Source of the DNA: Draconibacterium orientale
GTDB lineage: Bacteria; Bacteroidota; Bacteroidia; Bacteroidales; JAADGE01
Length of the DNA stretch: 50,944 nt
Assembly (NCBI GenBank): GCA_020721645.1
Contig: DYMH01000005.1
Coordinates: 1-50,944, forward strand
Reading direction: 5' to 3'
In this document: positions 8,267-50,253 of the stretch, in pieces
Layout of the letters: every line of letters begins with the position of its first letter
Position numbering within the stretch: position 1 is the first letter of the stretch
Notes under the pieces: generated by a model
What the model was told of the DNA's origin: nothing
Seen by the model: the letters and a program-made list of their open reading frames with translations, nothing else
Databases searched by the model: none
Position numbers and translations under genes: made by a program

Positions 8267-8349
8267 TCTGAAAACATAGATTATGAAATCTTTCTCGCAT
8301 TGGGTTTTGTATATTTTATAAATTTAAAAAACATAAAACTTGTTTAGCA

Positions 8350-8544
8350 ATGAAAAAACTTATTTTCCTTTTCTTCGCCGCCTCAATGTTAGCTTGTGGA
8401 AATTCGCCCTGCGAAAAGAAAACCTGCAAAGATTTTAAAACACAAAAAGAGGCACAGAAAACCTATGAGTCTGATAAAGATTGTTACAAAAATCTCGACC
8501 GCGATAACGATGGCAGTGCCTGCGAAGATTTACCGAAGGAATAA
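8350..8544 (+). CDS. Small secreted lipoprotein with Excalibur-type Ca-binding motif
   Basis: Signal peptide ending in a lipobox-like LAC and a DRDNDGSACE (DxDxDGxxCE) motif. Followed by an intrinsic terminator. Confidence 0.6.
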   Translation: MKKLIFLFFAASMLACGNSPCEKKTCKDFKTQKEAQKTYESDKDCYKNLDRDNDGSACEDLPKE

Positions 8545-8548
8545 TTAA

Positions 8549-8574
8549 AGTCGGCAAAAATGCCGATTTTTTTA
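8549..8574 (+). terminator. Intrinsic terminator
   Basis: tcggca-aaaa-tgccga hairpin followed by a 7-nt T-run. Confidence 0.6.
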
Positions 8575-8812
8575 AGTGTCAATTTTTATTTTAATAATTC
8601 TGCTCAGTTATCTTTTAATTGTTACCCGGAATTATTAGGACGGATATTTGAGTAATTGGCAAATAATTATGATAACCTGAAAATTTGGCGACATTTGAAA
8701 TTTGTATATGCTGAGCACGGTCATAAATTATGTTTTACGATTTGTTTAACTATTTGATATTAAAAGCAATCAGCATAACAGCACATCAAAAAATCAACCA
8801 ATAAAAGTATAA

Positions 8813-8955
8813 TATTGTTAATGCTTATCCGCAAAGTCCCCTTAAAAAATTTCATTTATAAAACAGTAATTTTTTATACCGCTAATATGTTTATTGAATG
8901 TATGTTGCAAACTCTCCCTTAACAAAGGGGACCGGGGGTATTTTTATTCAACTTA
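8813..8955. repeat. About 145-bp intergenic repeat element, family 1, copy A. An inverted copy lies at 41641-41794.
   Basis: Near-identical over most of its length to the reverse complement of 41641-41794 (taatgcttatccgcaaagtcccc ... tgtatgttgcaaactc[t/c]ccctt..aagggg ... gggggtatttttattcaa). Contains an internal imperfect hairpin (ctcccttaacaaagggga). Confidence 0.7.
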
Positions 8956-9171
8956 TTAATGTCGGAAGTTTCGCAGTTTGTATATACGAGTCCGGTCTAA
9001 AAAGTATAAAGTTTGAAAGTGAAAAGTGCAAAATCGTTCATAATCAGTAATTTATGTAAAGATGTAAATTTGACTTAAAGTCCTTATTTTCAGTATTATA
9101 ACTTTATAAACTTTCTTCTTTATGACTTTTTAAACTGAACTCATTAATCGTTTTCCAAATTTGAACAATAA

Positions 9172-9207
9172 TAAAAAAAGTCGGCATTTCGCCGACTTTT
9201 TTTTTAT
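9172..9207. terminator. Bidirectional intrinsic terminator downstream of the EF-G paralog
   Basis: A-run, agtcggc-atttc-gccgact hairpin, then a 9-nt T-run. Confidence 0.65.
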
Positions 9208-9218
9208 TCAATTATCAA

Positions 9219-11375
9219 TTACTCTTCTCCCAATTCAGCTTCATGTTCTTTAATTAATTTTTCCTGAATATCGGTCGGCACCTGAGCATATTCGGCAAAA
9301 GCCATCTCGTATGTCGCACGTCCGCCGGTCAAAGAGCTCAGTGTCGTTGAATATTTGTTGAGTTCAGCCAAAGGAATTCGAGCTTTTATCACTTCAAAAC
9401 CTTTAATACTGCTCATTCCCATAATAATTGCACGTCTTCCCTGCAAATCACTCATCACATCTCCCATACGATCTCCCGGAACCATCACATCAACATCGTA
9501 AACAGGTTCCAATAATTTAGGCGAAGCTTTTTTAAAGGCTTCCGAAAAAGCTTTTGCGCCCGCCAATTTAAACGAAATTTCGTTGGAATCAACATCGTGC
9601 ATTTTTCCAAAATAAACACTTACACGAATATCACGGGCATAAGAACCTGTTAATGGACCAAATTCCATTTTCTCATTGATTCCTTTAATAATTGCCGGCA
9701 TGTAGCTGGCATCAATAACGCCACCGACAATACAATTATAAAAAATAAATTTTCCGCCCCACGGTAATTCAAATTCTTTGGTATCTCGAACCGAAACTAC
9801 ATATTCTTGATTGTTAATTTTAAACACTTTGGGTGCCGGTTTGTCATCGGCATAAGGCTCTATTATTAAATGAACTTCACCAAACTGTCCGGCACCGCCC
9901 GATTGTTTTTTATGGCGATAATCGGCTTGTGAAGGTTTGGTAATGGTTTCGCGGTACGGAATTTTCGGGGCAATAAATTCAGCGGCAATTTTAAATTCAT
10001 GGTCCAAGTACCATTTCAAAGTATTCAGGTGGTGTTCGCCCTGTCCGTGGATAATGAGTTGTTTTAATTCTTTTGAATATTCGAGTATCCATGTCGGGTC
10101 TTCATCATGCAATTTATGCAAAATTTCACCCAGTTTTTCATCATCGGCTTCGCTAACAGCTTTTATGGCTGTTCTGTATTTTGGGTTTGGAAATTCAAGA
10201 GGAGGAAATTTGAACTCTGTACCTTTTTCGCATAAAGTATGTTGAGCTTTTACCGTTTTTAATTTAATGGTAGCACCAATGTCGCCAGCCACAAGTTTTT
10301 CAACTTTGGTTCGTATTTTCCCATTCACTGCAAAAAGTTGAGACAGTCGCTCTTTGGCTTCTTTATTCATGTTGATTAAATCATCGCCTTCGGCTATTTC
10401 GCCCGACATGACTTTAAAGAACAAGATTTCGCCCAAATGTTGTTCAATGGTATTTTTAAAAATATAAACAGATTTTTTCCCCTTTGAATCGCATTTTACA
10501 TTTTTCCCGTCAGCTGTAACAGCTTCCGGCATCAAATCGGGCGATGGAACTGTGTTTGCAAGAAAATCGAGCAAGCGGCGTGTCCCGAAATTACTTCGGG
10601 CTGCTGTGCAGAAAATCGGAAACATTCCGCCGGTAATCAATCCTTTGGTAATGCCTTTTCGCATTTCTTCCTCAGTCAAGCTGCCTTTTTCAAAGAAAAT
10701 CTCCATTAAATTTTCATCATTTTCTGCAGCCGACTCGATCAACGCATTATGCAATTCAGTGGCTCGTTCTTTTTCCGATTCCGGTATGTCTGTTATCTTT
10801 GGTTCGGCTCCCGCTTTATCCCATGTGTACATTTTCATGGTTATCACATCGATGATTGAATTAAACCCAATTCCTTGATTAACAGGAAATTGAATGATTG
10901 CTATTTTATTGCTTAAGCGTTCTTTGATTTCGTCAACGGTCTTTTCAAAATTTGTCTTTTCGTGGTCCAAATGATTCACAACCATGATAACAGGAACATG
11001 ATGTTTTTCTGTCAAACGCCATGCCGATTCTGTTCCCACTTCAATACCATTTTGTGCATTTAGAACCAATACCGCAGCATCACTGACACGTAATCCCGAA
11101 ACAACGCCTCCCACAAAATCACCGGCACCGGGCGTATCTATTATATTTATTTTTTTATCAGCCCACAATGTGTGCAAAACTGTCGATGATATCGAACCAC
11201 CTTGTTCCTGTTCAATCACCCTGTAATCGGATACTGTGGTTTTCAAAGCTATATCGCCGATTCGGCTTATCAGTCCGCCTTCAAAAATCATGGCTTCAGC
11301 CAATGTCGTTTTGCCGGAACCTGCATTTCCTATAAAAGATAAATTCCTAATTTCATTCGTTTGATAGACTTTCAT
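9219..11375 (-). CDS. EF-G-like translational GTPase paralog (718 aa) with degenerate switch II
   Basis: Full five-domain EF-G architecture. G1 GNAGSGKTT. G3 is DTPGAGDF instead of the canonical DTPGHVDF. G4 is NHLD instead of NKxD. Divergent from rpsL. Confidence 0.8.
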   Translation of the reverse strand: MKVYQTNEIRNLSFIGNAGSGKTTLAEAMIFEGGLISRIGDIALKTTVSDYRVIEQEQGGSISSTVLHTLWADKKINIIDTPGAGDFVGGVVSGLRVSDAAVLVLNAQNGIEVGTESAWRLTEKHHVPVIMVVNHLDHEKTNFEKTVDEIKERLSNKIAIIQFPVNQGIGFNSIIDVITMKMYTWDKAGAEPKITDIPESEKERATELHNALIESAAENDENLMEIFFEKGSLTEEEMRKGITKGLITGGMFPIFCTAARSNFGTRRLLDFLANTVPSPDLMPEAVTADGKNVKCDSKGKKSVYIFKNTIEQHLGEILFFKVMSGEIAEGDDLINMNKEAKERLSQLFAVNGKIRTKVEKLVAGDIGATIKLKTVKAQHTLCEKGTEFKFPPLEFPNPKYRTAIKAVSEADDEKLGEILHKLHDEDPTWILEYSKELKQLIIHGQGEHHLNTLKWYLDHEFKIAAEFIAPKIPYRETITKPSQADYRHKKQSGGAGQFGEVHLIIEPYADDKPAPKVFKINNQEYVVSVRDTKEFELPWGGKFIFYNCIVGGVIDASYMPAIIKGINEKMEFGPLTGSYARDIRVSVYFGKMHDVDSNEISFKLAGAKAFSEAFKKASPKLLEPVYDVDVMVPGDRMGDVMSDLQGRRAIIMGMSSIKGFEVIKARIPLAELNKYSTTLSSLTGGRATYEMAFAEYAQVPTDIQEKLIKEHEAELGEE

Positions 11376-40514: not shown

Positions 40515-41126
40515 ATGAAAAAACTATTTCTTATTTTATCTGTATTCTTGATTGTCTATTCAGCCACTGCCCAAAAAATCGGCTTAAAAATTGGCTTAAA
40601 TATGGCAACTATCAAAAGCGATCAGCCTAATTTCGATGAATACAAAAAAAGTCTTATCGGCGTGAACGGCGGATTGGTATTAGAAAAAAAAGTTGTGCCT
40701 TATCTCTCACTTCAAGGCGAAGTCTTGTTTTCGCAGAAAGGATTTTATAGCAAAGAAGATGAAGGAAATTATGAGAAAACGATTGTCAATTATCTTGAAG
40801 TTCCGCTTTCGGTAAAAATAAAAGTTGGACCAACACCCTTGTTTTTCTTAGCAGGTCCGTATTTCGGCTATGCCATGAACGGAAAAATAAAATCGAAACA
40901 AACAGTTTTAGGCGTATCCACAGAAAGTGATGATGACATCAATTGGGACACATACAAAATGAAACGCTTCGATTTGGGAATCAATGCCGGTTTGGGAATG
41001 AAATTCGGTCCCATATTTATCGAAGGTCGTTATGGCTTAGGTTTAACAGATTTGAACGATGATTCCAACGAATCGTACTATTACAAAAACAGTGTTTTTG
41101 GCGTTTCGGTAGGTGTTATTTTCTAA
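40515..41126 (+). CDS. Small outer-membrane beta-barrel protein (OmpA-N/porin-like family)
   Basis: Signal peptide, alternating amphipathic beta-strands, C-terminal ...GVSVGVIF. Confidence 0.7.
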   Translation: MKKLFLILSVFLIVYSATAQKIGLKIGLNMATIKSDQPNFDEYKKSLIGVNGGLVLEKKVVPYLSLQGEVLFSQKGFYSKEDEGNYEKTIVNYLEVPLSVKIKVGPTPLFFLAGPYFGYAMNGKIKSKQTVLGVSTESDDDINWDTYKMKRFDLGINAGLGMKFGPIFIEGRYGLGLTDLNDDSNESYYYKNSVFGVSVGVIF

Positions 41127-41145
41127 TTTACGAACCAAAAATATA

Positions 41146-41182
41146 AAAATCCGCAAATCGAAAAGTTTGCGGATTTTTTTTG
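41146..41182 (+). terminator. Intrinsic terminator
   Basis: aaatccgcaaa-N8-tttgcggattt hairpin followed by a T-run. Confidence 0.7.
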
Positions 41183-41217
41183 TTAAAGTATCGTGCAAAA
41201 AATCCTATCTAAGGGAC

Positions 41218-41362
41218 TGTAACGAAATATGCTATTCATTTCGCTAAATCGTTCGGCTAAGGCTCTGCCTTAGTCGAATATTTTAAAAGAGGCTTGCCTC
41301 GAATAAATACAATCAAAACAAAGCGAATTTGTTTTTAAAAATATCCATGTTATTTCGTTACA
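41218..41362. repeat. MITE-like element, family 2, copy 1 (145 bp)
   Basis: 12-13-bp terminal inverted repeats (tgtaacgaaatat / atatttcgttaca). Central hairpin ttcggctaagg-ctctg-ccttagtcgaa. Near-identical inverted copy at 46916-47066. Confidence 0.75.
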
Positions 41363-41427
41363 AATCCTAAGAGTTTAAAAAATGAATAAAAATTATGGTG
41401 CTATTCCGAAATACTGTGATAATTTTT

Positions 41428-41566
41428 AACTATCGCCGGCTTTTAAGCCGGTGTCATACAAACTATTAGACGGCTTTAGCCACCAATTTTATAACATTAT
41501 AAAAAATGAAAGGCTAAAGCCAAATGACGTTTTTAATTTACACCGGCTTAAAAGCCGGCGATAGTG
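41428..41566. repeat. MITE-like palindromic element, family 3 (139 bp) with perfect 25-bp TIRs
   Basis: Left end ctatcgccggcttttaagccggtgt and right end acaccggcttaaaagccggcgatag are perfect reverse complements. Each arm is itself palindromic (ccggcttttaagccgg). An inner inverted pair ggctttagcc/ggctaaagcc is also present. Confidence 0.7.
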
Positions 41567-41640
41567 AATTTATTAATTTGTTAAATATCAATTATTTGTC
41601 ACAAAGATATTAATCACAATATTACGGAATAGCATATAAA

Positions 41641-41794
41641 TTGAATAAAAATCCCCCCAGCCCCCCCAGCCTCCCTTTGGTAAGGAGGAGTTTGCAACAT
41701 ACATTTAATTAACAAATTAGCTGTAATAAAAAACATTATTTTATCAATCTAAATTTTTAGGGGACTTTGCGGATAAGCATTATTTATTGTTATT
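41641..41794. repeat. Intergenic repeat element, family 1, copy B (inverted relative to 8813-8955)
   Basis: The reverse complement aligns to 8813-8955 along its length. It carries an extra ccccccagcccccccagcc expansion where copy A has accgggggta. Confidence 0.7.
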
Positions 41795-41949
41795 ACCTTA
41801 TCAACACCAACATATCAAAATACAAAAATGGTTTATGTTTTAAACTAAGAAACACATTAAAATAAAGACTCGAAACGAATTTTTGTTCAATAGATAAACA
41901 AAAAATTCGCCGAGTCTTTATTTTGATAAATTTTAAATCTATGTCATTT

Positions 41950-42085
41950 TGTAAAGAAATGTATTTGCTGTTCGGCTTAGGCTCTGCCTAAGTCGAAGTT
42001 ATTATGACAGGCTCTGTCTGTCTGTAGAAGCAAGGGAGAGCCTTGCAAAATAAGCCCGACTGGAACAGAGCCTCAGCCGAACACA
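41950..42085. repeat. Degenerate family-2-like element (left TIR-like end plus central hairpin with compensatory changes)
   Basis: tgtaaagaaatgta resembles the family-2 TIR. The hairpin ttcggcttagg-ctctg-cctaagtcgaa keeps base pairing through a double compensatory swap. A partial inverted copy (cagagcctcagccgaac) lies further right. Confidence 0.5.
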
Positions 42086-42109
42086 TGCTTAACTCAACGA
42101 CATTGAATA

Positions 42110-42577
42110 TTAAATTGTAAATCGATTGATATATTCCGAAAAATCTTTCAATTTTGGTCGATAATCGGTATCGAGCAGGGGCGAGGAAATTAAAAAATCT
42201 GCCGTAGAACGATTGCAGGCATTGGGCAAATTATAGAGAACTGCAATACGCAAAAGAGCTTTAACATCAACATCGTGAGGTTGTTGTGTCATCGGGTCCC
42301 AAAGAAAAATCATCAGGTCTATTTTTCCGTCGGCTATCATGGCACCCAGTTGTTGGTCTCCGCCTAGCGGTCCCGATTTCAGTTTGATGATGTTGTGTTT
42401 TATTGCTTCGCGGTCGTCGGCTTTTTGCAAAATGGCATCTTCAACCATTTTTCCGGTAGTTCCGGTGCAAACCAAACGATATTTAACCAAATTTTCCCAG
42501 TTCCACTCCACCCATTCCACCAAGTCTTTTTTTCGGGCATCGTGGGCTACCAGGGCTATTGTTTTCACTTTGTTCAT
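42110..42577 (-). CDS. mgsA: Methylglyoxal synthase
   Basis: IALVAHDARKKDLVEW... MgsA signature, 155 aa. Confidence 0.85.
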   Translation of the reverse strand: MNKVKTIALVAHDARKKDLVEWVEWNWENLVKYRLVCTGTTGKMVEDAILQKADDREAIKHNIIKLKSGPLGGDQQLGAMIADGKIDLMIFLWDPMTQQPHDVDVKALLRIAVLYNLPNACNRSTADFLISSPLLDTDYRPKLKDFSEYINRFTI

Positions 42578-43817: not shown

Positions 43818-46163
43818 TTAAAGTTTAATCAATTGCTTTCTGTATGATTTGTCTCCGATTTTCAGTTTGAAAAAATAAATTCCGCCGTTCAACGATGATA
43901 AATCGATATTTTCGTTGTATCTGCCTGCCGGAAGTTCCGTGTCATTTATCATTTTTACTCTTCTGCCGAGAGCATCGAAAATTTCTGTTCTAACATGAGT
44001 ATTATTTTTTGTTTCGTAGGATAATGTTAGCAGATTATCAACAGGATTCGGGAAAATAGTGTAAGTGAATGCTTCCAAATTGTTCTCAATAGATGTTCCG
44101 GAAACAACTGTAAACTGATATTCGGTATTTAAAATGTTGTAACCGCTCACAATTAAAGTTGCACTTCCGGTTTGTACCAAATCATTGTCCAAATCAATCA
44201 AAACATTTCCGTCCAAATCTGTTACGGCTTCACCGATGAGAACGCCGTTTTGAAATACCGAGCACATATAATTAGAGGTATTCAGCCCGTTTATTTTTAC
44301 ATTCGCTGCAAAATCATCGTTAATGTTGAGTGTGCTGTTATAAGTCGCATTCACATTGTACGGATTGGCAATCCAAAGCGACAAAACCGGGTCGGCAAGT
44401 ACGTTGCAATCGTAGAAACACCAACGCATGGCACCTTCTTCCCACTGTCCGGGAGCTTCAACCCAAGGAGCAGTGTTTAATTTTGAAATGGCATGTGCTA
44501 AGCCGATATTTTCGATTTTTTGGTCGTACAAGGCATCAACAAATTCGCGTTGAATGTGTGCCGACGGTCCTTCGGTTTGACCTTCGTTAAACCAGCCGTA
44601 ACGTGAGTTCCCGATAAAACCGGCAAGAAAATTATCAATCTTCACCATTTCTTCACCTATGCAGTCATCATTGTCGAACGAGCCGCAAATACAGCCGTGT
44701 GTATAGACAAAAGTGTAATTATGCGTAGTTCCGTTTACCAAGTTGAAATTTTCATTGGTGATGTCCGAATTGCTCAAGCCCATAACGTAATCCCAATTTG
44801 CATGACCGCAATGATAAATAAACGGGTGTCCGGTGTTTATTTCGGTAATCAGTGTGCTTGGGGCGTAGTGGGACCAATTGCCGTCTCGTTCGTAAAGAGT
44901 TTCGTAAGGGTCGCTTGCCGGGATTCCTGTTGTGGTATATCCATTATCAGTATGGTTTCCGATAAGTAAATCCAAATAATCGGCACCCCAAGTTTCGGTG
45001 GCGCTGTGTAAAGACTCATCGACCAAAAGCGGATTGTTTAATTCGCCCAAAACCGGAGTTTGTTGATATTTCAAGGTTTTATTCAACATTTTATTCAATT
45101 CCGAAACACTTGAAAACGGCATTCTGCCCACTGCAATTTCGGGCAGCAAATCATCTTCATCGGCTTCGCCCCATAAATTGTCGCCATCATTGTTCCACGT
45201 TCCGTTTAAGGCTGAAAAGTAGTAATCGGAAGGGATATTATCATCTTCATAGATTGTTCCGCCCGAATTAACATGACCGTATAAACCCCGATACGGAACA
45301 ATTTCTACATCGCCTCCCAAAATCACAGATGAGATATTTTTAGTTTGATATTCCGAAATAATATAGTTTCTGAGCTTCTCGGCATTATCGGTTCCGCTGC
45401 TTTGGGCATAAATTTCCGGCATGCTTTTAACTTCTGATTTTAATCCTTTTTTTAGATAAAAATCGCTTAAAGACGAAAAGGAATTAACATAAGAACTTCC
45501 TGTAACAATCAGAATATCATATGTTTCGGTTTTTGAATCATTGACTTGATAGGTTTCGAGTAATTCCGAGTTTTGAACGAATTGTTCGAGTTTTTTGGTA
45601 ATAAAAGTTGATTTTTTTGCATTTCGACCAATTGCTTCGGATTTTGCATCGACAGAATATTCAATTTCGACAGTAATTTTTTTATAAAACGATGCTTTTT
45701 TATCTTTCGGATTGTAAACAAGGGGGGTAAAAGTTGATAAACAAATGGCATATCCATCGAGAAATTGAGTATCGAAATTGATTTCTTGTTTCGTTGGATA
45801 TTTTGTCGATTGCGAATAGGTTTGTCGATTCACAACAAACTCCGGCTTTCCGGTGTACGAAAGCGGACGGGTTGTTTGGCGAGGATATAAATTTATTTTG
45901 CCTTCGATTTCGGTCAGATTTTCGCCCCGAATAGATATTTTATCGGCTTTGGTTCCCTGAGGAAGCAACATTTTAACGGCAAAATACGGCAAAACCGGAT
46001 TCCCGACTTCGGCGGTTTGCAAACAATTGTCAAAGTCGATTATTTGATAGTTTCCCATTTGGGAAACCGAATATTTATCGAAAAAAAAGGTTTTTGATAT
46101 TTTTTGAGAAAAAGCAAATGTGCTCAAAAATAAAAATATCGAAGTAATAATAATTTTAGTCAT
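43818..46163 (-). CDS. Gingipain-like peptidase C25 family protein with type IX secretion C-terminal sorting domain. Start trimmed to the signal-peptide Met (MTKIIITSIFLFLSTFAFSQ).
   Basis: C25-like catalytic region (IYHCGHANWDY..., YTHGCICGSF). C-terminal about-80 aa matching the T9SS CTD pattern (...IFPNPVDNLLTLSYE...GIYFFKLKIGDKSYRKQLIKL). Confidence 0.75.
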   Translation of the reverse strand: MTKIIITSIFLFLSTFAFSQKISKTFFFDKYSVSQMGNYQIIDFDNCLQTAEVGNPVLPYFAVKMLLPQGTKADKISIRGENLTEIEGKINLYPRQTTRPLSYTGKPEFVVNRQTYSQSTKYPTKQEINFDTQFLDGYAICLSTFTPLVYNPKDKKASFYKKITVEIEYSVDAKSEAIGRNAKKSTFITKKLEQFVQNSELLETYQVNDSKTETYDILIVTGSSYVNSFSSLSDFYLKKGLKSEVKSMPEIYAQSSGTDNAEKLRNYIISEYQTKNISSVILGGDVEIVPYRGLYGHVNSGGTIYEDDNIPSDYYFSALNGTWNNDGDNLWGEADEDDLLPEIAVGRMPFSSVSELNKMLNKTLKYQQTPVLGELNNPLLVDESLHSATETWGADYLDLLIGNHTDNGYTTTGIPASDPYETLYERDGNWSHYAPSTLITEINTGHPFIYHCGHANWDYVMGLSNSDITNENFNLVNGTTHNYTFVYTHGCICGSFDNDDCIGEEMVKIDNFLAGFIGNSRYGWFNEGQTEGPSAHIQREFVDALYDQKIENIGLAHAISKLNTAPWVEAPGQWEEGAMRWCFYDCNVLADPVLSLWIANPYNVNATYNSTLNINDDFAANVKINGLNTSNYMCSVFQNGVLIGEAVTDLDGNVLIDLDNDLVQTGSATLIVSGYNILNTEYQFTVVSGTSIENNLEAFTYTIFPNPVDNLLTLSYETKNNTHVRTEIFDALGRRVKMINDTELPAGRYNENIDLSSLNGGIYFFKLKIGDKSYRKQLIKL

Positions 46164-46575
46164 AATATTTTTTTTAGTGGTTCGATAATATGTGAAAATA
46201 TGAAAATTAGAAAACAGGTAAAATGTTGAATTACAATAAATTAATAAATAATGCTTGTTTTTTATATTATTGATTATGTGATAAATATAGGTTTGTAACT
46301 TAGTAATTTTTAATTGGGTGAAAAGAAAAAAAGTCATGTTCTTTCTTTCTATACTTCGTTATATTTTTATATCTAACAGAATATTAGTAAATTACAGATA
46401 TTTTGTCTCGCAAAGACGCTAATTATTCAAGATCAACGTCTTTGCGTGCTTTGCAACTTAGCGAAAAAAAAAATGCCGAACTATTATGGTTCTTCGTCAT
46501 TTTATGTGGGTAAATTTTAAAGATAAGTATGTAATTATTTGAAATTATGGTGTTTAGAACTTATTTTTAAGAATA

Positions 46576-46714
46576 ACCTTAAATCCGCAAGTTCCGGCAG
46601 ATTTTCCAAGAATTATAAGAAAAAATCGAAATCTTTAAACACTTGAATAAGTGAAATCTGCCGGAAATTATTTGTTGAAATACAATAATATATAAAAACA
46701 CATGCGGATTTAAG
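46576..46714. repeat. 139-bp nested inverted-repeat (MITE-like) element
   Basis: Outer arms cttaaatccgcaag / catgcggatttaag. Inner arms ttccggcagattt / aaatctgccggaa (perfect 11-13 bp). Confidence 0.5.
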
Positions 46715-46915
46715 AAATAATATAAGATTTGATTATTTTATGGTACTTAACTAACAGACAATAAACATCTTATCTTTAAGGCATCTTCAATTTACGCACA
46801 CTTTTTGACGAAGAGCCTGATTTTCTTTAATTGGTAAATTTATTGCTGTGCTGACATCTTTTATATCAAATAGATAAACAATTGATAAAATGCAATATTA
46901 TTGTGCTTCGGATTT

Positions 46916-47066
46916 GTAACGAAATATCATGCTTATTTTAAAAACGGATTTGTTTTGATTGTATTTATTCGAGGCAAAGCCTCTTTTAAAATATTCGACT
47001 AAGGCAGAGCCTTAGCCGAACGATTCAGCAAAATCATTGCCAAATGAACAGTTTATTTCGTTGCAA
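46916..47066. repeat. MITE-like element, family 2, copy 2 (inverted orientation)
   Basis: Reverse complement nearly identical to 41218-41362, including the TIRs and the central hairpin. One 1-nt indel (gcaagcc vs gcaaagcc) and an about-18-nt insertion near one end. Confidence 0.75.
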
Positions 47067-47117
47067 TCACTTCGTATTTAAGCAAAGTAAAAATGATAAA
47101 AAAGTTGATTTGCAAAT

Positions 47118-47150
47118 ATACAAAAAGCACCGAAACTTCGATGCTTTTTT
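47118..47150. terminator. Bidirectional intrinsic terminator for the hydrogenase operon
   Basis: A-run, gcaccgaaa/cttcgatgc imperfect hairpin, then a 7-nt T-run. Confidence 0.55.
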
Positions 47151-47152
47151 TA

Positions 47153-47192
47153 ATTATCAATTATCAATTATCAATTATCAATTATCAATTAG
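47153..47192. repeat. Perfect heptanucleotide tandem repeat (aattatc)x5 plus a partial unit, in the hydA 3' UTR
   Basis: Direct reading. The units begin 2 bp after the terminator T-run and end at the hydA stop codon. Confidence 0.9.
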
Positions 47193-48976
47193 TACCGGTT
47201 TCGTTTTCGGTATTTTGTATGTAACAAGTGATGCGATTTTTCGCCGAGCGGGTTTCCAAGAAATTCTTCGTAAATCTGAGTAATTTCGGGGTTTTCGTGC
47301 GACATGCGGATTGGTTTTCCGGCATCTTCTTCGTAAATAGCTGCAATACGTTTCAAACGAATTTCGTTTGTTGTAGGAATCGGTTGTCCGCCGCCTCCGA
47401 TACAGCCGCCGGGGCAAGCCATGATTTCTATAAAATGATAGGGCGATTTTCCGGCAGCGATTTGGTCCATAATTGCACGTGCATTTGTTAATCCGTGGGC
47501 AATTGCGAAACGAGCTTCAACACCTTCCAAGAAACTGTATTCGGGCAAGCAATTTTCGAATTTAACGGTAGCTTCTTTCACACTTTCCATACCGCGAACG
47601 GGCAAAATGTTTAGGTCTTTGAACGGCACCGGGCGACCGGTGATTAGGAAATAAGCTGTTCTTAATGCAGCTTCCATAACACCGCCCGTAGCACCGAAAA
47701 TAACACCGGCACCTGTCGATTCACCCATGATGCTGTCAAAATTATCTTCGGGCAAATCCATAAAATTCAAACCGGATTGTTTAATCATGTGTCCCAATTC
47801 TCGGGTTGTCAGCCCGGCGTCAATATCTTGAAAACCGCTGTCTCGCATTTCGGGACGGTTTGCCTCAAATTTCTTTGCAGCACAAGGCATTCCTGCAACG
47901 CAAACAATTTTCGAAGGGTCGATTCCTTTCTTTTCGGCGAAATATGTTTTTGCCAAAGCACCAAACATTTGTTGCGGCGATTTACAGGTCGAGAGATGGT
48001 CTAAATGCTCCGGATACATGTGTTCAATAAATTTTACCCAGCCCGGTGAGCAAGATGTAATCATCGGAAGTGCAACTTTTTCTTTATCGACCAAAGCTTT
48101 TTTCAAGCGTGTCAATAATTCGGTTCCTTCTTCCATAATGGTTAAATCTGCCGTGAAATCGGTATCGAGAACGGCATCGAAGCCCATTTTTTTAAGAGCC
48201 GTTACCATTTGCCCCGTAACGCGTGTTCCGACAGGCAGTCCGAGGCTTTCGCCAAGTGCAACACGCACCGAAGGAGCTGTATTGACGACTACGTATTTGT
48301 CCGGATCATCGATTGCTTCCCAAATGTCGTCATAATATCTTCTTTCGGTCAATGCTCCTGTGGGGCAGTGTATGATACACTGTCCGCAGTTAGTACAAAC
48401 GATTTCGTTCATTGGTAAGTGCATAAACGTTGAGATTCTCATGTCTTTCCCTCGTTCGGTAACAGCCAATGCGTTCACATGTTGAATTTCGGCACAGGTT
48501 CGCACGCAACGTTGGCAACGAATACATTTGCTGTTGTCTTTTTCTACCGACCACGATGATTTATCCAAATCGGTGTCGCCTTTTTTCAAAACACTCAGGT
48601 AGATTTGATTATCTACATTATAGTCGGAAGATAGGGTTTGAAGCTCGCAATTTGTACTTCGATAGCAGGTTGTGCATTGAGTGTTGTGCTCCGAAACTAA
48701 AAGGGCGAGAATATCCTTTCGGGCTCTACGCACTTTGGGAGAAGATGTTAAAATTTTCATTCCCTTGTCGGCAGGTGTTGCACAAGAGGCAGTTAAAGTT
48801 TGTTTCCCGACTTGTTCCACAACGCAAACGCGACAGTTTCCGGCAACACATAAGTCTTCGTGATGACAAAGTGTCGGGATTTTGATGTTGATTTTTTTGG
48901 CGGCATCCAAGATAGAAGTTCCTTGTTCGACCGTTACGTCGATACCGTCGATATTTAAGGTGATATTATTTGCCAT
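47189..48976 (-). CDS. hydA: [FeFe]-hydrogenase catalytic subunit HydA (N-terminal 2Fe-2S and [4Fe-4S] domains plus H-cluster domain). Start trimmed to MANNITLNIDG.
   Basis: NuoG-like N-terminus (CHHEDLCVAGNCRVCVV), two ferredoxin-like CxxCxxCxxxCP motifs, and H-cluster motifs (TSCSPGW, MPCAAKK, EIMACPGGCIGGGGQP). Confidence 0.9.
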   Translation of the reverse strand: MANNITLNIDGIDVTVEQGTSILDAAKKINIKIPTLCHHEDLCVAGNCRVCVVEQVGKQTLTASCATPADKGMKILTSSPKVRRARKDILALLVSEHNTQCTTCYRSTNCELQTLSSDYNVDNQIYLSVLKKGDTDLDKSSWSVEKDNSKCIRCQRCVRTCAEIQHVNALAVTERGKDMRISTFMHLPMNEIVCTNCGQCIIHCPTGALTERRYYDDIWEAIDDPDKYVVVNTAPSVRVALGESLGLPVGTRVTGQMVTALKKMGFDAVLDTDFTADLTIMEEGTELLTRLKKALVDKEKVALPMITSCSPGWVKFIEHMYPEHLDHLSTCKSPQQMFGALAKTYFAEKKGIDPSKIVCVAGMPCAAKKFEANRPEMRDSGFQDIDAGLTTRELGHMIKQSGLNFMDLPEDNFDSIMGESTGAGVIFGATGGVMEAALRTAYFLITGRPVPFKDLNILPVRGMESVKEATVKFENCLPEYSFLEGVEARFAIAHGLTNARAIMDQIAAGKSPYHFIEIMACPGGCIGGGGQPIPTTNEIRLKRIAAIYEEDAGKPIRMSHENPEITQIYEEFLGNPLGEKSHHLLHTKYRKRNRY

Positions 48977-49089
48977 TTTATTAGTTTTTAGATATGAGAT
49001 TTGAGACACAAGACGCAAGATATGATTTCGGAAATTATTTAATTTTACAGTAATATTTCTAAAATCTAAAATCTTGATACTTTTGTCTG

Positions 49090-50253
49090 TTAATAAATCA
49101 TTTCTTCTCTGAAATTGTTCACAATAGAACTGAACGAATTCGTAACCGATTGACCTAAACCGCATTTCGATGTAATTCTCATTGTGTCGGCTAATTTGAG
49201 AAGTTGATTCAAATATTCGGGTGATTTTTTTCCTGTTTTCACGGCTTCAATTCCTTTGAGCAGTTGCTGGCAACCGATTCGACAAGGTGTGCATTGCCCG
49301 CATGATTCTTCGGCATAAAATTCCAAATAATTATGCAAAACGTTGTACATTGAACGCGTGCTGTTGAAAACCATTGTAGAGCTGCCCGTTGTATTTCCTT
49401 CGCCGATAACGGCAGATTTAAAATCTTTTCGCGGAATACAAAAACCTGCAACGCCTCCTACTTGTACTGCTTTTGTGTCGCCGTCGCCAAATTCCGCAAC
49501 AAAAGCTTCTAATGTCATACCCAATTCGAGTTCATGAACTCCTTCTTTTGGAGAATCGCCCGAAATGGAAAATAATTTTGAACCGTGTTGGTCGTCTGTG
49601 CCAAGCTTTCGATATTCATCGGCACCAATTCGACAAATCATATTGGCAGATGCGAAAGTTTCAACATTATTAACAACGGTTGGGTAGCCCAAATAGCCTT
49701 TTTGGATTGGAAATGGCGGCTTGTTCCTTGGCTCTCCGCGTTTGCCTTCCATTGATTCGATAAGTGCAGTTTCTTCGCCGCAAACATAAGCCCCGGCTCC
49801 CAAAAATATCGAAATATCGAAATTAAGTCCTATTTCTTTTGCATGTTGCTTGTATATATCCAACTCTTTTTCGAGTCCTTTTATCAAATATTTATACTCG
49901 CGACGCAAATAAATTACACCTTTTGTTGAGCCTGTAACCCAAGCACAAATTGCCATTCCGGAAATCACTTTACGCGGAACTTCGGTGAGTAATTTGCGGT
50001 CTTTGAATGTTCCGGGTTCGCCTTCATCGGCATTGCAAATTACGTATTTGATGTCGCCTTGTTGTTCTGCGGCAAATTTCCATTTTAATCCGGTCGGAAA
50101 ACCGGCACCGCCCCGTCCTCTGAGACCCGATTTCAAAATCTGGTCAATAACTTCGGCTTTATTATTTTTCTTATGATGTTCTTTTAAGACTTGATAAGGA
50201 GCCGTAGAGTATGGGCTGAATATAATATCTACTTTTTTTGCTTTATTTAACAT
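49090..50253 (-). CDS. hydB: NuoF-like NAD(P)H-binding FMN/[4Fe-4S] subunit of the hydrogenase (HydB/HndC-like). Start trimmed to the Met with a GGAGG RBS.
   Basis: GLRGRGGAGFPTGLKW FMN/NADH motif. C-terminal CGQCTPCR...C cluster. No extra ferredoxin domains. Confidence 0.85.
   Translation of the reverse strand: MLNKAKKVDIIFSPYSTAPYQVLKEHHKKNNKAEVIDQILKSGLRGRGGAGFPTGLKWKFAAEQQGDIKYVICNADEGEPGTFKDRKLLTEVPRKVISGMAICAWVTGSTKGVIYLRREYKYLIKGLEKELDIYKQHAKEIGLNFDISIFLGAGAYVCGEETALIESMEGKRGEPRNKPPFPIQKGYLGYPTVVNNVETFASANMICRIGADEYRKLGTDDQHGSKLFSISGDSPKEGVHELELGMTLEAFVAEFGDGDTKAVQVGGVAGFCIPRKDFKSAVIGEGNTTGSSTMVFNSTRSMYNVLHNYLEFYAEESCGQCTPCRIGCQQLLKGIEAVKTGKKSPEYLNQLLKLADTMRITSKCGLGQSVTNSFSSIVNNFREEMIY

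Follow-up and report, generated by a model that had tools for sequence, protein, structure and literature searches.

A long intergenic spacer in a Bacteroidales-type contig as a probable mosaic of REP-like units and other short non-autonomous repeats

The island considered here is a 983-bp spacer (41127–42109) between two convergent genes of contig DYMH01000005.1, a 51-kb AT-rich segment of Bacteroidales type whose whole length was analysed and is called the window below; the loci and contigs fetched for comparison carry L-numbers (L001, L015 and so on). The window contains a ribosomal-protein cluster, genes for cargo proteins of the type IX secretion system (T9SS) and an Fe-hydrogenase gene. 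It is 100% identical to contigs of the metagenome-assembled genome (MAG) GCA_974325965.1 and of the public metagenome datasets Logan SRR407177/SRR407178 and JGI 3300000233, while other strains, GCA_020720605.1 among them, are 98–99% identical to it. A first-pass annotation, made from the sequence alone, had described a gene-free gap of about 1 kb between a beta-barrel gene and mgsA, occupied by four palindromic elements of about 140 bp that resemble miniature inverted-repeat transposable elements (MITEs). The gap was confirmed, as the island holds no open reading frame (ORF) longer than 51 aa and none that is conserved. The repeats are likewise real and far beyond chance (2–3 matches in each of three core-motif searches vs 0 in 100 shuffles), while their sizes, their folding and the MITE label call for revision. 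In our analysis the island is probably a mosaic of non-autonomous repeats similar to the bacterial interspersed mosaic elements (BIMEs), and two of its repeat families, called family 2 (the A elements) and B, are probably substrates of HUH/Y1 transposases, i.e. candidate repetitive extragenic palindromes (REPs) or relatives of them. The neighbouring genes, the elements on which this interpretation is built and the non-hairpin repeat C1 are the following:

40515–41126, plus strand: OMP_b-brl (outer membrane protein beta-barrel) gene, left neighbour of the island.
41208–41372, plus strand: element A1, 165 nt, with 12/13-nt terminal inverted repeats (TGTAACGAAATA) and one REP unit; DNA-fold z = -4.8.
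41249–41299, plus strand: REP unit within A1, composed of hairpin 1 (TTCGGCTAAGGC-TCT-GCCTTAGTCGAA), a TAT-rich spacer and hairpin 2 (GAGGC-TT-GCCTC); nhmmer E = 9e-14 with the 79-copy profile.
41399–41634, no strand assigned: B-long, a 236-nt palindrome with outer arms 41399–41420/41613–41634 (22 nt, 91%); z = -13.9.
41426–41568, no strand assigned: B core, an inverted doublet of a two-hairpin unit; z = -11.8.
41636–41782, plus strand: element C1, a non-palindromic repeat and inverted copy of 8819–8956; fold z = +1.3 / +0.1.
41969–42083, no strand assigned: element A3, a 115-nt inverted doublet similar to a REPIN (a REP doublet that folds into a hairpin), with 47-nt arms that are 77% complementary; z = -8.0.
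41968–42021, plus strand: left unit of A3, intact; nhmmer E = 5.6e-15.
42035–42083, minus strand: right unit of A3, degenerate; nhmmer E = 0.0049.
42110–42577, minus strand: mgsA, right neighbour of the island, with its stop codon at 42110.
46906–47065, minus strand: element A2, the second full A copy, with a REP unit at 46970–47023 (minus strand; nhmmer E = 3.2e-15).

In elements A1 and A2 a single REP unit lies in a 165-nt shell whose ends are short inverted repeats. The terminal sequence TGTAACGAAATA occurs exactly at 41218–41229 (plus strand) and 41351–41362 (minus strand), and with one mismatch allowed it has 7 matches, compared with a mean of 0.56 and a largest value of 3 in shuffles; together with the central 12-bp hairpin at 41252–41278, this agrees with the earlier picture of an element with terminal inverted repeats around a hairpin. 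Over 135 nt, A1 and A2 agree at 89%. A third copy, with 91% identity to A1, is in L015, a contig of a MAG from the same cave system, and the contexts of the three copies (at 41.2 kb, at 46.9 kb and in L015) all differ. In the MAG contig L011 (10694–10855) the A1 sequence is 97.6% identical to that of the window and 3 nt shorter, the rest of this 11-kb contig being 99.96% identical, and the difference is due either to true microheterogeneity of the repeat or to a mistake in its assembly.

Element A3 had been regarded as a degenerate copy of A1, from which it turned out to differ in architecture. By its sequence it is a putative gene-less inverted REP doublet (REPIN), while A1 and A2 have a single unit, and only the hairpin unit of about 50 nt is common to these elements (including GTTCGGCTWAGGCTCTGCCTWAGTCGAA, found in both A3 and A1, with an A-T to T-A pair flip). 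Gene-less inverted doublets are present also in L018, L030, L043, L045 and L075; whether the L018 doublet is orthologous to the one at mgsA was considered and rejected, the context being different. A3 was found in all strains examined, at 96–98% identity, and this distribution together with the decayed right arm suggests an old, vertically inherited insertion.

The distribution of the family-2 unit was studied with the pattern TTCGGCTNAGGCNNNGCCTNAGTCGAA in GTDB, one genome per species. The scan identified 78 exact-pattern units at 64 loci in 39 other assemblies, with up to 8 exact copies per fragmented MAG; nearly all of these assemblies are labelled Bacteroidales or Bacteroidota, and single contigs Saprospiraceae and Ignavibacterium. 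The unit begins with a foot ending in G, followed by a 12-bp hairpin (TTCGGCTNAGGC-NNN-GCCTN'AGTCGAA), a TATAT spacer and a second hairpin of 5–8 bp (CAGGC..GCCTG). The G at position -1, the T's of the spacer and most positions of hairpin 2 lie outside the searched pattern and are nevertheless conserved at 90% or more in the 79 copies (39 assemblies plus the window), which argues that the family is real and that its unit spans about 55–65 nt. The foot reads cccNG, or GCTG in A3, and its last G alone reaches 90% conservation; the canonical tetranucleotide GTAG (or CGTC) is not the foot of family 2. The same 27-nt hairpin, with 22 fixed bases, is present in 39 species-level assemblies, a spread broader than is usual for REPs. 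Thus, the description of the repeats as dispersed, non-coding and non-autonomous, and not as a local duplication, holds for family 2, with its three lineage contexts and 39 other assemblies. A literature search with literal sequences returned chance primer matches only, and a keyword search for RAYTs (REP-associated tyrosine transposases) in Bacteroidales genera returned nothing useful.

Compensatory change in the family-2 stem, which the first-pass annotation had noticed between copies within the window, was found to extend across the 79 copies. The stem-1 pair left free by the search pattern is paired in 67 of the 79 copies and exhibits all four Watson-Crick types (UA 30, GC 16, AU 13, CG 5, in addition to UG 3, with 12 copies unpaired), and pairs of stem 2 covary too. 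The covariation score is 0.149, compared with 0.077 in shuffles (none of 500 reached 0.149) and 0.023–0.063 in slid controls.

A partner protein of the unit was found in other genomes. The REP loci of 12 species contain an ORF of about 190 aa, which scores 99–104 bits on the NCBIfam model NF047646 (REP-associated tyrosine transposase, cut-off 80) and matches Pfam Y1_Tnp as well. Convergent REP units lie within about 100 nt on both sides of the full-length RAYT gene in ten of the 12 cases, from which it follows that the family-2 unit is a REP. The proteins are 64–93% identical to the one encoded by L034 and share the motifs NH[IM]H, YIH[ENQK]NP and Y.YSSA. In the PDB, the profile search gave E. 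coli TnpA-REP (4ER8) as the best, albeit weak, match (E = 0.0055), and the single-sequence search with the RAYT gave no match. One of the 12 genes (L040, 1201–1722) carries an in-frame stop codon and is a possible pseudogene, with the convergent REP units still in place.

As judged from motifs and design rather than from phylogeny, the family-2 RAYT and its REP appear to fit RAYT subclass 2.6 (group 5 of Bertels), which Quentin et al. 2018 (PMC6006769) describe as mostly from Bacteroidetes, with "atypical secondary structures" and with copies elsewhere in the genome. Common to both are the motifs NH[LIV]H and YIH[QN]NP, an SS tail, a length of about 180–190 aa and hosts from Bacteroidetes. The REPs are also of the same design: the subclass 2.6 entries in Table S1 of PMC6006769 have a foot GCTG, GCTA or CCCC, a stem of 9–10 bp with G.T wobbles and a loop TCT or TGT. 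On the other hand, the exact family-2 REP sequence is absent from that table, the tryptophan motif is WT here instead of WQ, and the accessible part of the paper makes no mention of a second hairpin or a TATAT spacer.

The REP units show further arrangements. Head-to-tail tandem arrays with a period of 63–72 nt are present in L063 (1037–1196) and L019 (2011–2109), and the sequence between their units is identical, which marks them as tandem duplications and not as CRISPR-like structures. The readings as an integron attC site or a CRISPR, for which the ends GTTCGGC...GCCGAAC and the L063 array had been considered, were dropped in view of these identical spacers and of the RAYT gene between the units. 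In two different species-level MAGs (L019, position 3379, and L025, position 6708) a REP unit occupies an apparently orthologous site with near-identical 60-nt left flanks, which suggests long vertical persistence of individual insertions.

The second hairpin-forming family, B, is built on a different unit. The 29-nt arms of B core (41426–41454/41540–41568) are complementary to 97%, exactly so over a core of 23 nt, and each arm is itself a hairpin. The unit comprises a foot ACTAT, hairpin 1 (CGCCGGCTTTTAAGCCGGTG, at 41434–41453 and 41541–41560) and hairpin 2 (GGCTTTAGCC, at 41472–41481 and 41512–41521). The palindromic arms and the folding had been correctly recognised in the first-pass annotation; the element to which they were assigned is part of the larger 236-nt palindrome. 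A copy of B-long was found in L082, where the AT-rich surroundings are unrelated to those in the window. It matches window 41375–41518 at 79% over 146 nt and includes the left outer arm, while the right outer arm aligns weakly; as the copy carries an outer arm, the 236-nt palindrome is taken as the element.

When metagenomes were scanned for exact matches to the B hairpin (20 nt), 10 loci were found, and the general B unit was defined as a foot TCAYTAA followed by two hairpins, the first being C[AG]CCGGC..GCCGGTG. In the GC-rich loci L076, L077, L083 and L084 the foot is TCATTAA, and the hairpin is followed after about 22 nt by a second hairpin, GCCGTTTNAACGGC. In an alignment of 16 B units the foot is conserved, bases of hairpin 1 are paired in 99% of cases, and two of its pairs covary. 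Relatives of the unit flank a Y1 transposase gene in contigs from soil metagenomes. L077 contains an ORF of 150 aa between two convergent B-type units; independently fetched homologues have convergent flanking units too (L091, L092/94/95), or a unit on the 5' side (L096). Proteins of the L077 type score 69–70 bits on NF033573 (IS200/IS605 transposase, cut-off 55) and exhibit the motifs DHVH and YIxxQxEHH, a signature that corresponds to subclass 1.2, which PMC6006769 presents as low-copy and reports without REPs or IS200-type ends. At least 7968 homologous proteins were found at E <= 1e-10. In homologues with 80–90% identity the Y1 gene shows conserved synteny, with a Hexapep gene on one side and a GerE response regulator on the other, and is apparently single-copy; in this it is closer to a domesticated RAYT than to a mobile insertion sequence (IS). 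L084 contains a gene-less doublet of the B type; L077, L091 and L092 contain solo units. The window B element follows the order foot, hairpin 1, hairpin 2, centre, hairpin 2', hairpin 1', foot, with about 30 nt in the place of the gene; to judge by its sequence, it is a putative gene-less inverted doublet of a unit different from that of A3.

These observations suggest that a large clade of Y1 transposases thought to lack REPs does have them. It is possible, and proposed here tentatively, that the B-type unit defines an unrecognised system similar to REP-RAYT, whose partner would be the very large clade of 150-aa Y1 proteins with the subclass-1.2 signature and whose gene-less doublets would have reached AT-rich Bacteroidales. 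A second branch of this Y1 family, about 40% identical to the L077 protein (L084, 1663–1770/2260–2353, and L086–L090), is flanked by inverted three-hairpin units of wholly different sequence (GCGCCAAAGGCGC, CCTGGGGCAACGCCCCAGG, AGCGCTGAAAGCGC); in L084 the gene-less B-type doublet lies 190 nt upstream.

On the interpretation of the island as a BIME-like mosaic, short non-autonomous repeats would have accumulated in the spacer of a convergent gene pair. If E. coli TnpA-REP and IS608 serve as a model, the hairpins of these repeats would extrude in single-stranded DNA at the replication fork, a Y1 enzyme encoded elsewhere in the genome would bind the hairpin, cut at its foot and rejoin the ends, and single units or doublets could be moved or copied in this way without duplication of the target. 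Insertions would survive where they are harmless, i.e. downstream of convergent genes. The REP/REPIN design needs neither terminal inverted repeats nor a target-site duplication, and elements of this type belong to the common selfish DNA of bacteria, though few have been described from Bacteroidota.

Several findings weigh against this interpretation. Neither a Y1 transposase nor a RAYT was identified in the 51-kb window by tblastn or among the Pfam families of the neighbouring genes (as the first-pass annotation had correctly stated for transposases), and the window has only three strong and one weak REP units, all of them intergenic. About 100 nt of A1 and A2, including the 12-nt terminal inverted repeats, lie beyond the REP model, and element C is not accounted for. 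In the covariation analysis 11 of the 13 stem-1 pairs were fixed by the search pattern and are hence uninformative. As to family B, hairpin 2 of the window element (GGCTTTAGCC) is unlike hairpin 2 of the transposase-linked units (GCCGTTTNAACGGC), which in addition come from GC-rich, unrelated organisms. Finally, no clean pair of filled and empty sites was found. A candidate empty site for A2 was rejected because L001 and L003 have a 2.6-kb segment in place of window positions 46140–47098. This segment (L001, 3810–6435, and L003, from strains 98% identical to the window) contains a gene for an 826-aa protein with a Por_Secre_tail (T9SS cargo), and the window has there 958 bp of non-coding DNA with A2, module D (described below) and another palindrome, so that the site is a strain-variable segment in a repeat-rich spacer. 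The palindrome in question (46578–46714, about 137 nt) is nested, with arms 46578–46592/46700–46714 (93%) and 46589–46604/46654–46669 (94%), and has no sequence kinship to A, B or C.

Among the other explanations, the one that survives best, although we regard it as rather unlikely, is that A1/A2 and perhaps B-long are classical MITEs derived from an IS with a DDE transposase, mobilised by cut-and-paste through their terminal inverted repeats and generating a 5-bp target duplication. The REP unit in A would then be a passenger or a later insertion, and REPs inserted in longer palindromes have been reported in other bacteria (PMC3733652). A1 does have terminal inverted repeats of 12/13 nt, the outer arms of B-long (22 nt at 91%) could play the same role, and three copies of 160–170 nt with about 90% identity are known from unrelated contexts. 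Direct repeats were also found 4 nt outside the inverted repeats, CTAAG...CTAAG around A1 and CGAAG...CGAAG around A2; none was seen around B, A3 or C. However, A1 and A2 have four of these five letters in common, so that a duplication is argued for only by the match at one variable position, with a chance of about 1 in 16, and the L015 copy has no flanking direct repeat. Moreover, no IS with matching ends was found in the window or in any fetched locus, and cross-species conservation is limited to the RAYT-linked unit. The earlier idea of a generic MITE served by a cognate IS with the same terminal repeats is not supported, since the hairpin cores of families 2 and B flank HUH/Y1 transposase genes elsewhere.

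It is much less probable that the hairpin units are host-selected RNA elements (stabilisers of 3' ends, terminators or a small structured RNA) and not mobile DNA. Covariation, with G.U-type wobbles on one strand only, would suit an RNA, as would the conservation across many genera, yet hairpins in single-stranded DNA yield equal covariation and the tight physical link to a transposase gene accounts for the conservation. Similarly, A3 begins 26 nt downstream of the mgsA stop codon and its REP hairpin 1 scores as terminator-like on the plus strand, but no regular T-run follows either hairpin, the units face either way with respect to the neighbouring genes and also form inverted doublets and tandem arrays, and the L015 copy of A sits between two divergent ORFs. 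Rfam gave 0 matches for the whole window at the gathering score, and for 41000–42250 with E up to 10 chance-level hairpin (miRNA-type) matches only, without a match to a family of this kind.

A local duplication, or an artefact of assembly in which sequences were collapsed or wrongly joined at a palindrome, is hardly a credible explanation of the island: B is spanned by the window alone, but both halves of the island are reproduced at 96–100% identity in up to ten independent assemblies and the repeat families recur in unrelated loci and genomes. Ten independent assemblies end inside the island, with break points in B (41450, 41501, 41521, 41559, 41590), in C (41690, 41790) and in the left unit of A3 (41947, 41965, 41973), and every MAG contig examined ends within it. 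These breaks, like the up to 8 exact REP copies per fragmented MAG, are an indirect sign that the elements are multicopy. L011 stops 22 nt past B core, still in B-long, and all contigs other than the window and L011 start inside or to the right of B. As the units break short-read assemblies, their recognition should be helpful in MAG finishing and annotation.

If the island is the BIME-like mosaic proposed here, its closest counterpart is the REP/REPIN-RAYT system, exemplified by the REP-BIMEs of E. coli with TnpA-REP and by the REPINs of Pseudomonas fluorescens. Common features are short imperfect extragenic palindromes, inverted doublets able to form long hairpins, one Y1 (HUH) gene enclosed by two inverted units, and clusters between convergent genes. 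The differences are the foot (GTAG there, cccNG or GCTG here), the 12-bp stem with an obligatory second hairpin, and the host phylum, Bacteroidota. IS200/IS605 elements and their PATE miniatures resemble the B type in the Y1 transposase of about 150 aa, the hairpins at the ends, the absence of long terminal inverted repeats and of target duplication, and the gene-less miniatures; they differ from it in that the end units are on the same strand in IS200/IS605 and inverted here, the gene here is syntenic and apparently single-copy, which is RAYT-like behaviour, and the Y-motif YIxxQxEHH is that of subclass 1.2. Bacterial MITEs of the Correia, ERIC, RUP or BOX type share with the repeats described here the length of about 115–240 nt, the AT-richness, the non-coding nature, terminal inverted repeats, hairpins and dispersed intergenic location, but here there is no confirmed target-site duplication, no partner IS was found, and the conserved core is a Y1-transposase hairpin. 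In the mosaic clusters of E. coli (BIMEs) and Neisseria (dRS3/Correia, PMC3733652), unrelated short repeat families are interleaved in long spacers, as they are here, though the families themselves are different.

The family-2 data provide a concrete REP consensus for Bacteroidota (foot, 12-bp hairpin, TATAT, second hairpin) paired with its RAYT, for elements that in the literature consulted on this phylum are called just "atypical secondary structures". If the proposal for the B type is also true, then hairpin repeats of Y1 transposases would be far more widespread and conserved outside Proteobacteria than the catalogues show, while the general picture of REP/REPIN biology would remain unchanged.

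The remaining features of the window are of other kinds:

8707–8811, plus strand: module D, 79% identical to L015 1165–1261; its part 8733–8807 is 73% identical to 46825–46890.
8819–8956, minus strand: element C2, partner of C1, in the long convergent spacer 8267–9218.
41145–41178, no strand assigned: bidirectional terminator-like hairpin with a 13–14 bp stem and T-runs on both strands, directly after the OMP beta-barrel gene and outside the repeats.
41856–41927, no strand assigned: fifth hairpin, 72 nt, with a 14-bp outer stem, A/T runs on either side and 17-nt arms (94%); DNA-fold z = -6.5.

Element C is an unrelated, two-copy, non-hairpin repeat. C1 and C2 are 78% identical over 148 nt, in inverted orientation, and contain no conserved small ORF. 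The first-pass annotation was right about the inverted copy of an element at 8.8 kb and about its C-rich expansion, which is a tandem repeat of a 9-nt unit, (CCCCCCAGC)x2.6, at 41653–41675; the long hairpin attributed to it does not exist, and so the statement that all the elements fold into long hairpins fails for C. Nor is the size of about 140 bp general, the repeats and the fifth hairpin of the island being 165, 236, 147, 72 and 115 nt long. A CCTCC..GGAGG hairpin adjoining the C1 tract is missing in 98% identical strains (L001/L010) as an 18-nt indel with 100% identical flanks. All four listed elements exist, and the list had overlooked the fifth hairpin, at 41856–41927, which is, judged by eye, probably an old bidirectional terminator, although it was not reported by the terminator scan. 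The hairpin at 41145–41178 has the GC-rich stem followed by a T-run that characterises an intrinsic terminator.

Besides the island, the window has two unusually long spacers, 8267–9218 and 46338–47188, and repeat modules are common to these three and to no other spacer of the window; 8267–9218 and the island are both downstream of convergent genes. Module D, non-palindromic and about 100 nt long, adjoins C2 in one spacer and the right end of an A element in two others. The long spacers are mosaics of reshuffled modules. The tRNA/tmRNA scan found none, the promoter scan revealed no excess over shuffles, and scans of viral contigs with the REP pattern and the C pattern gave 0 matches. Simple tandem tracts are also present at the ends of the long spacers: a perfect heptamer array, (AATTATC)x5.7 at 47152–47191, overlaps the stop codon (47189–47191) of the minus-strand gene 47189–49165 and extends into the spacer 3' of it, and a shorter tract, caattatcaatta (9205–9218), lies directly 3' of the minus-strand gene that ends at 9219. 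Similar tracts, ccaattaa/ccaatcaa, follow REP units in L041 and L046.

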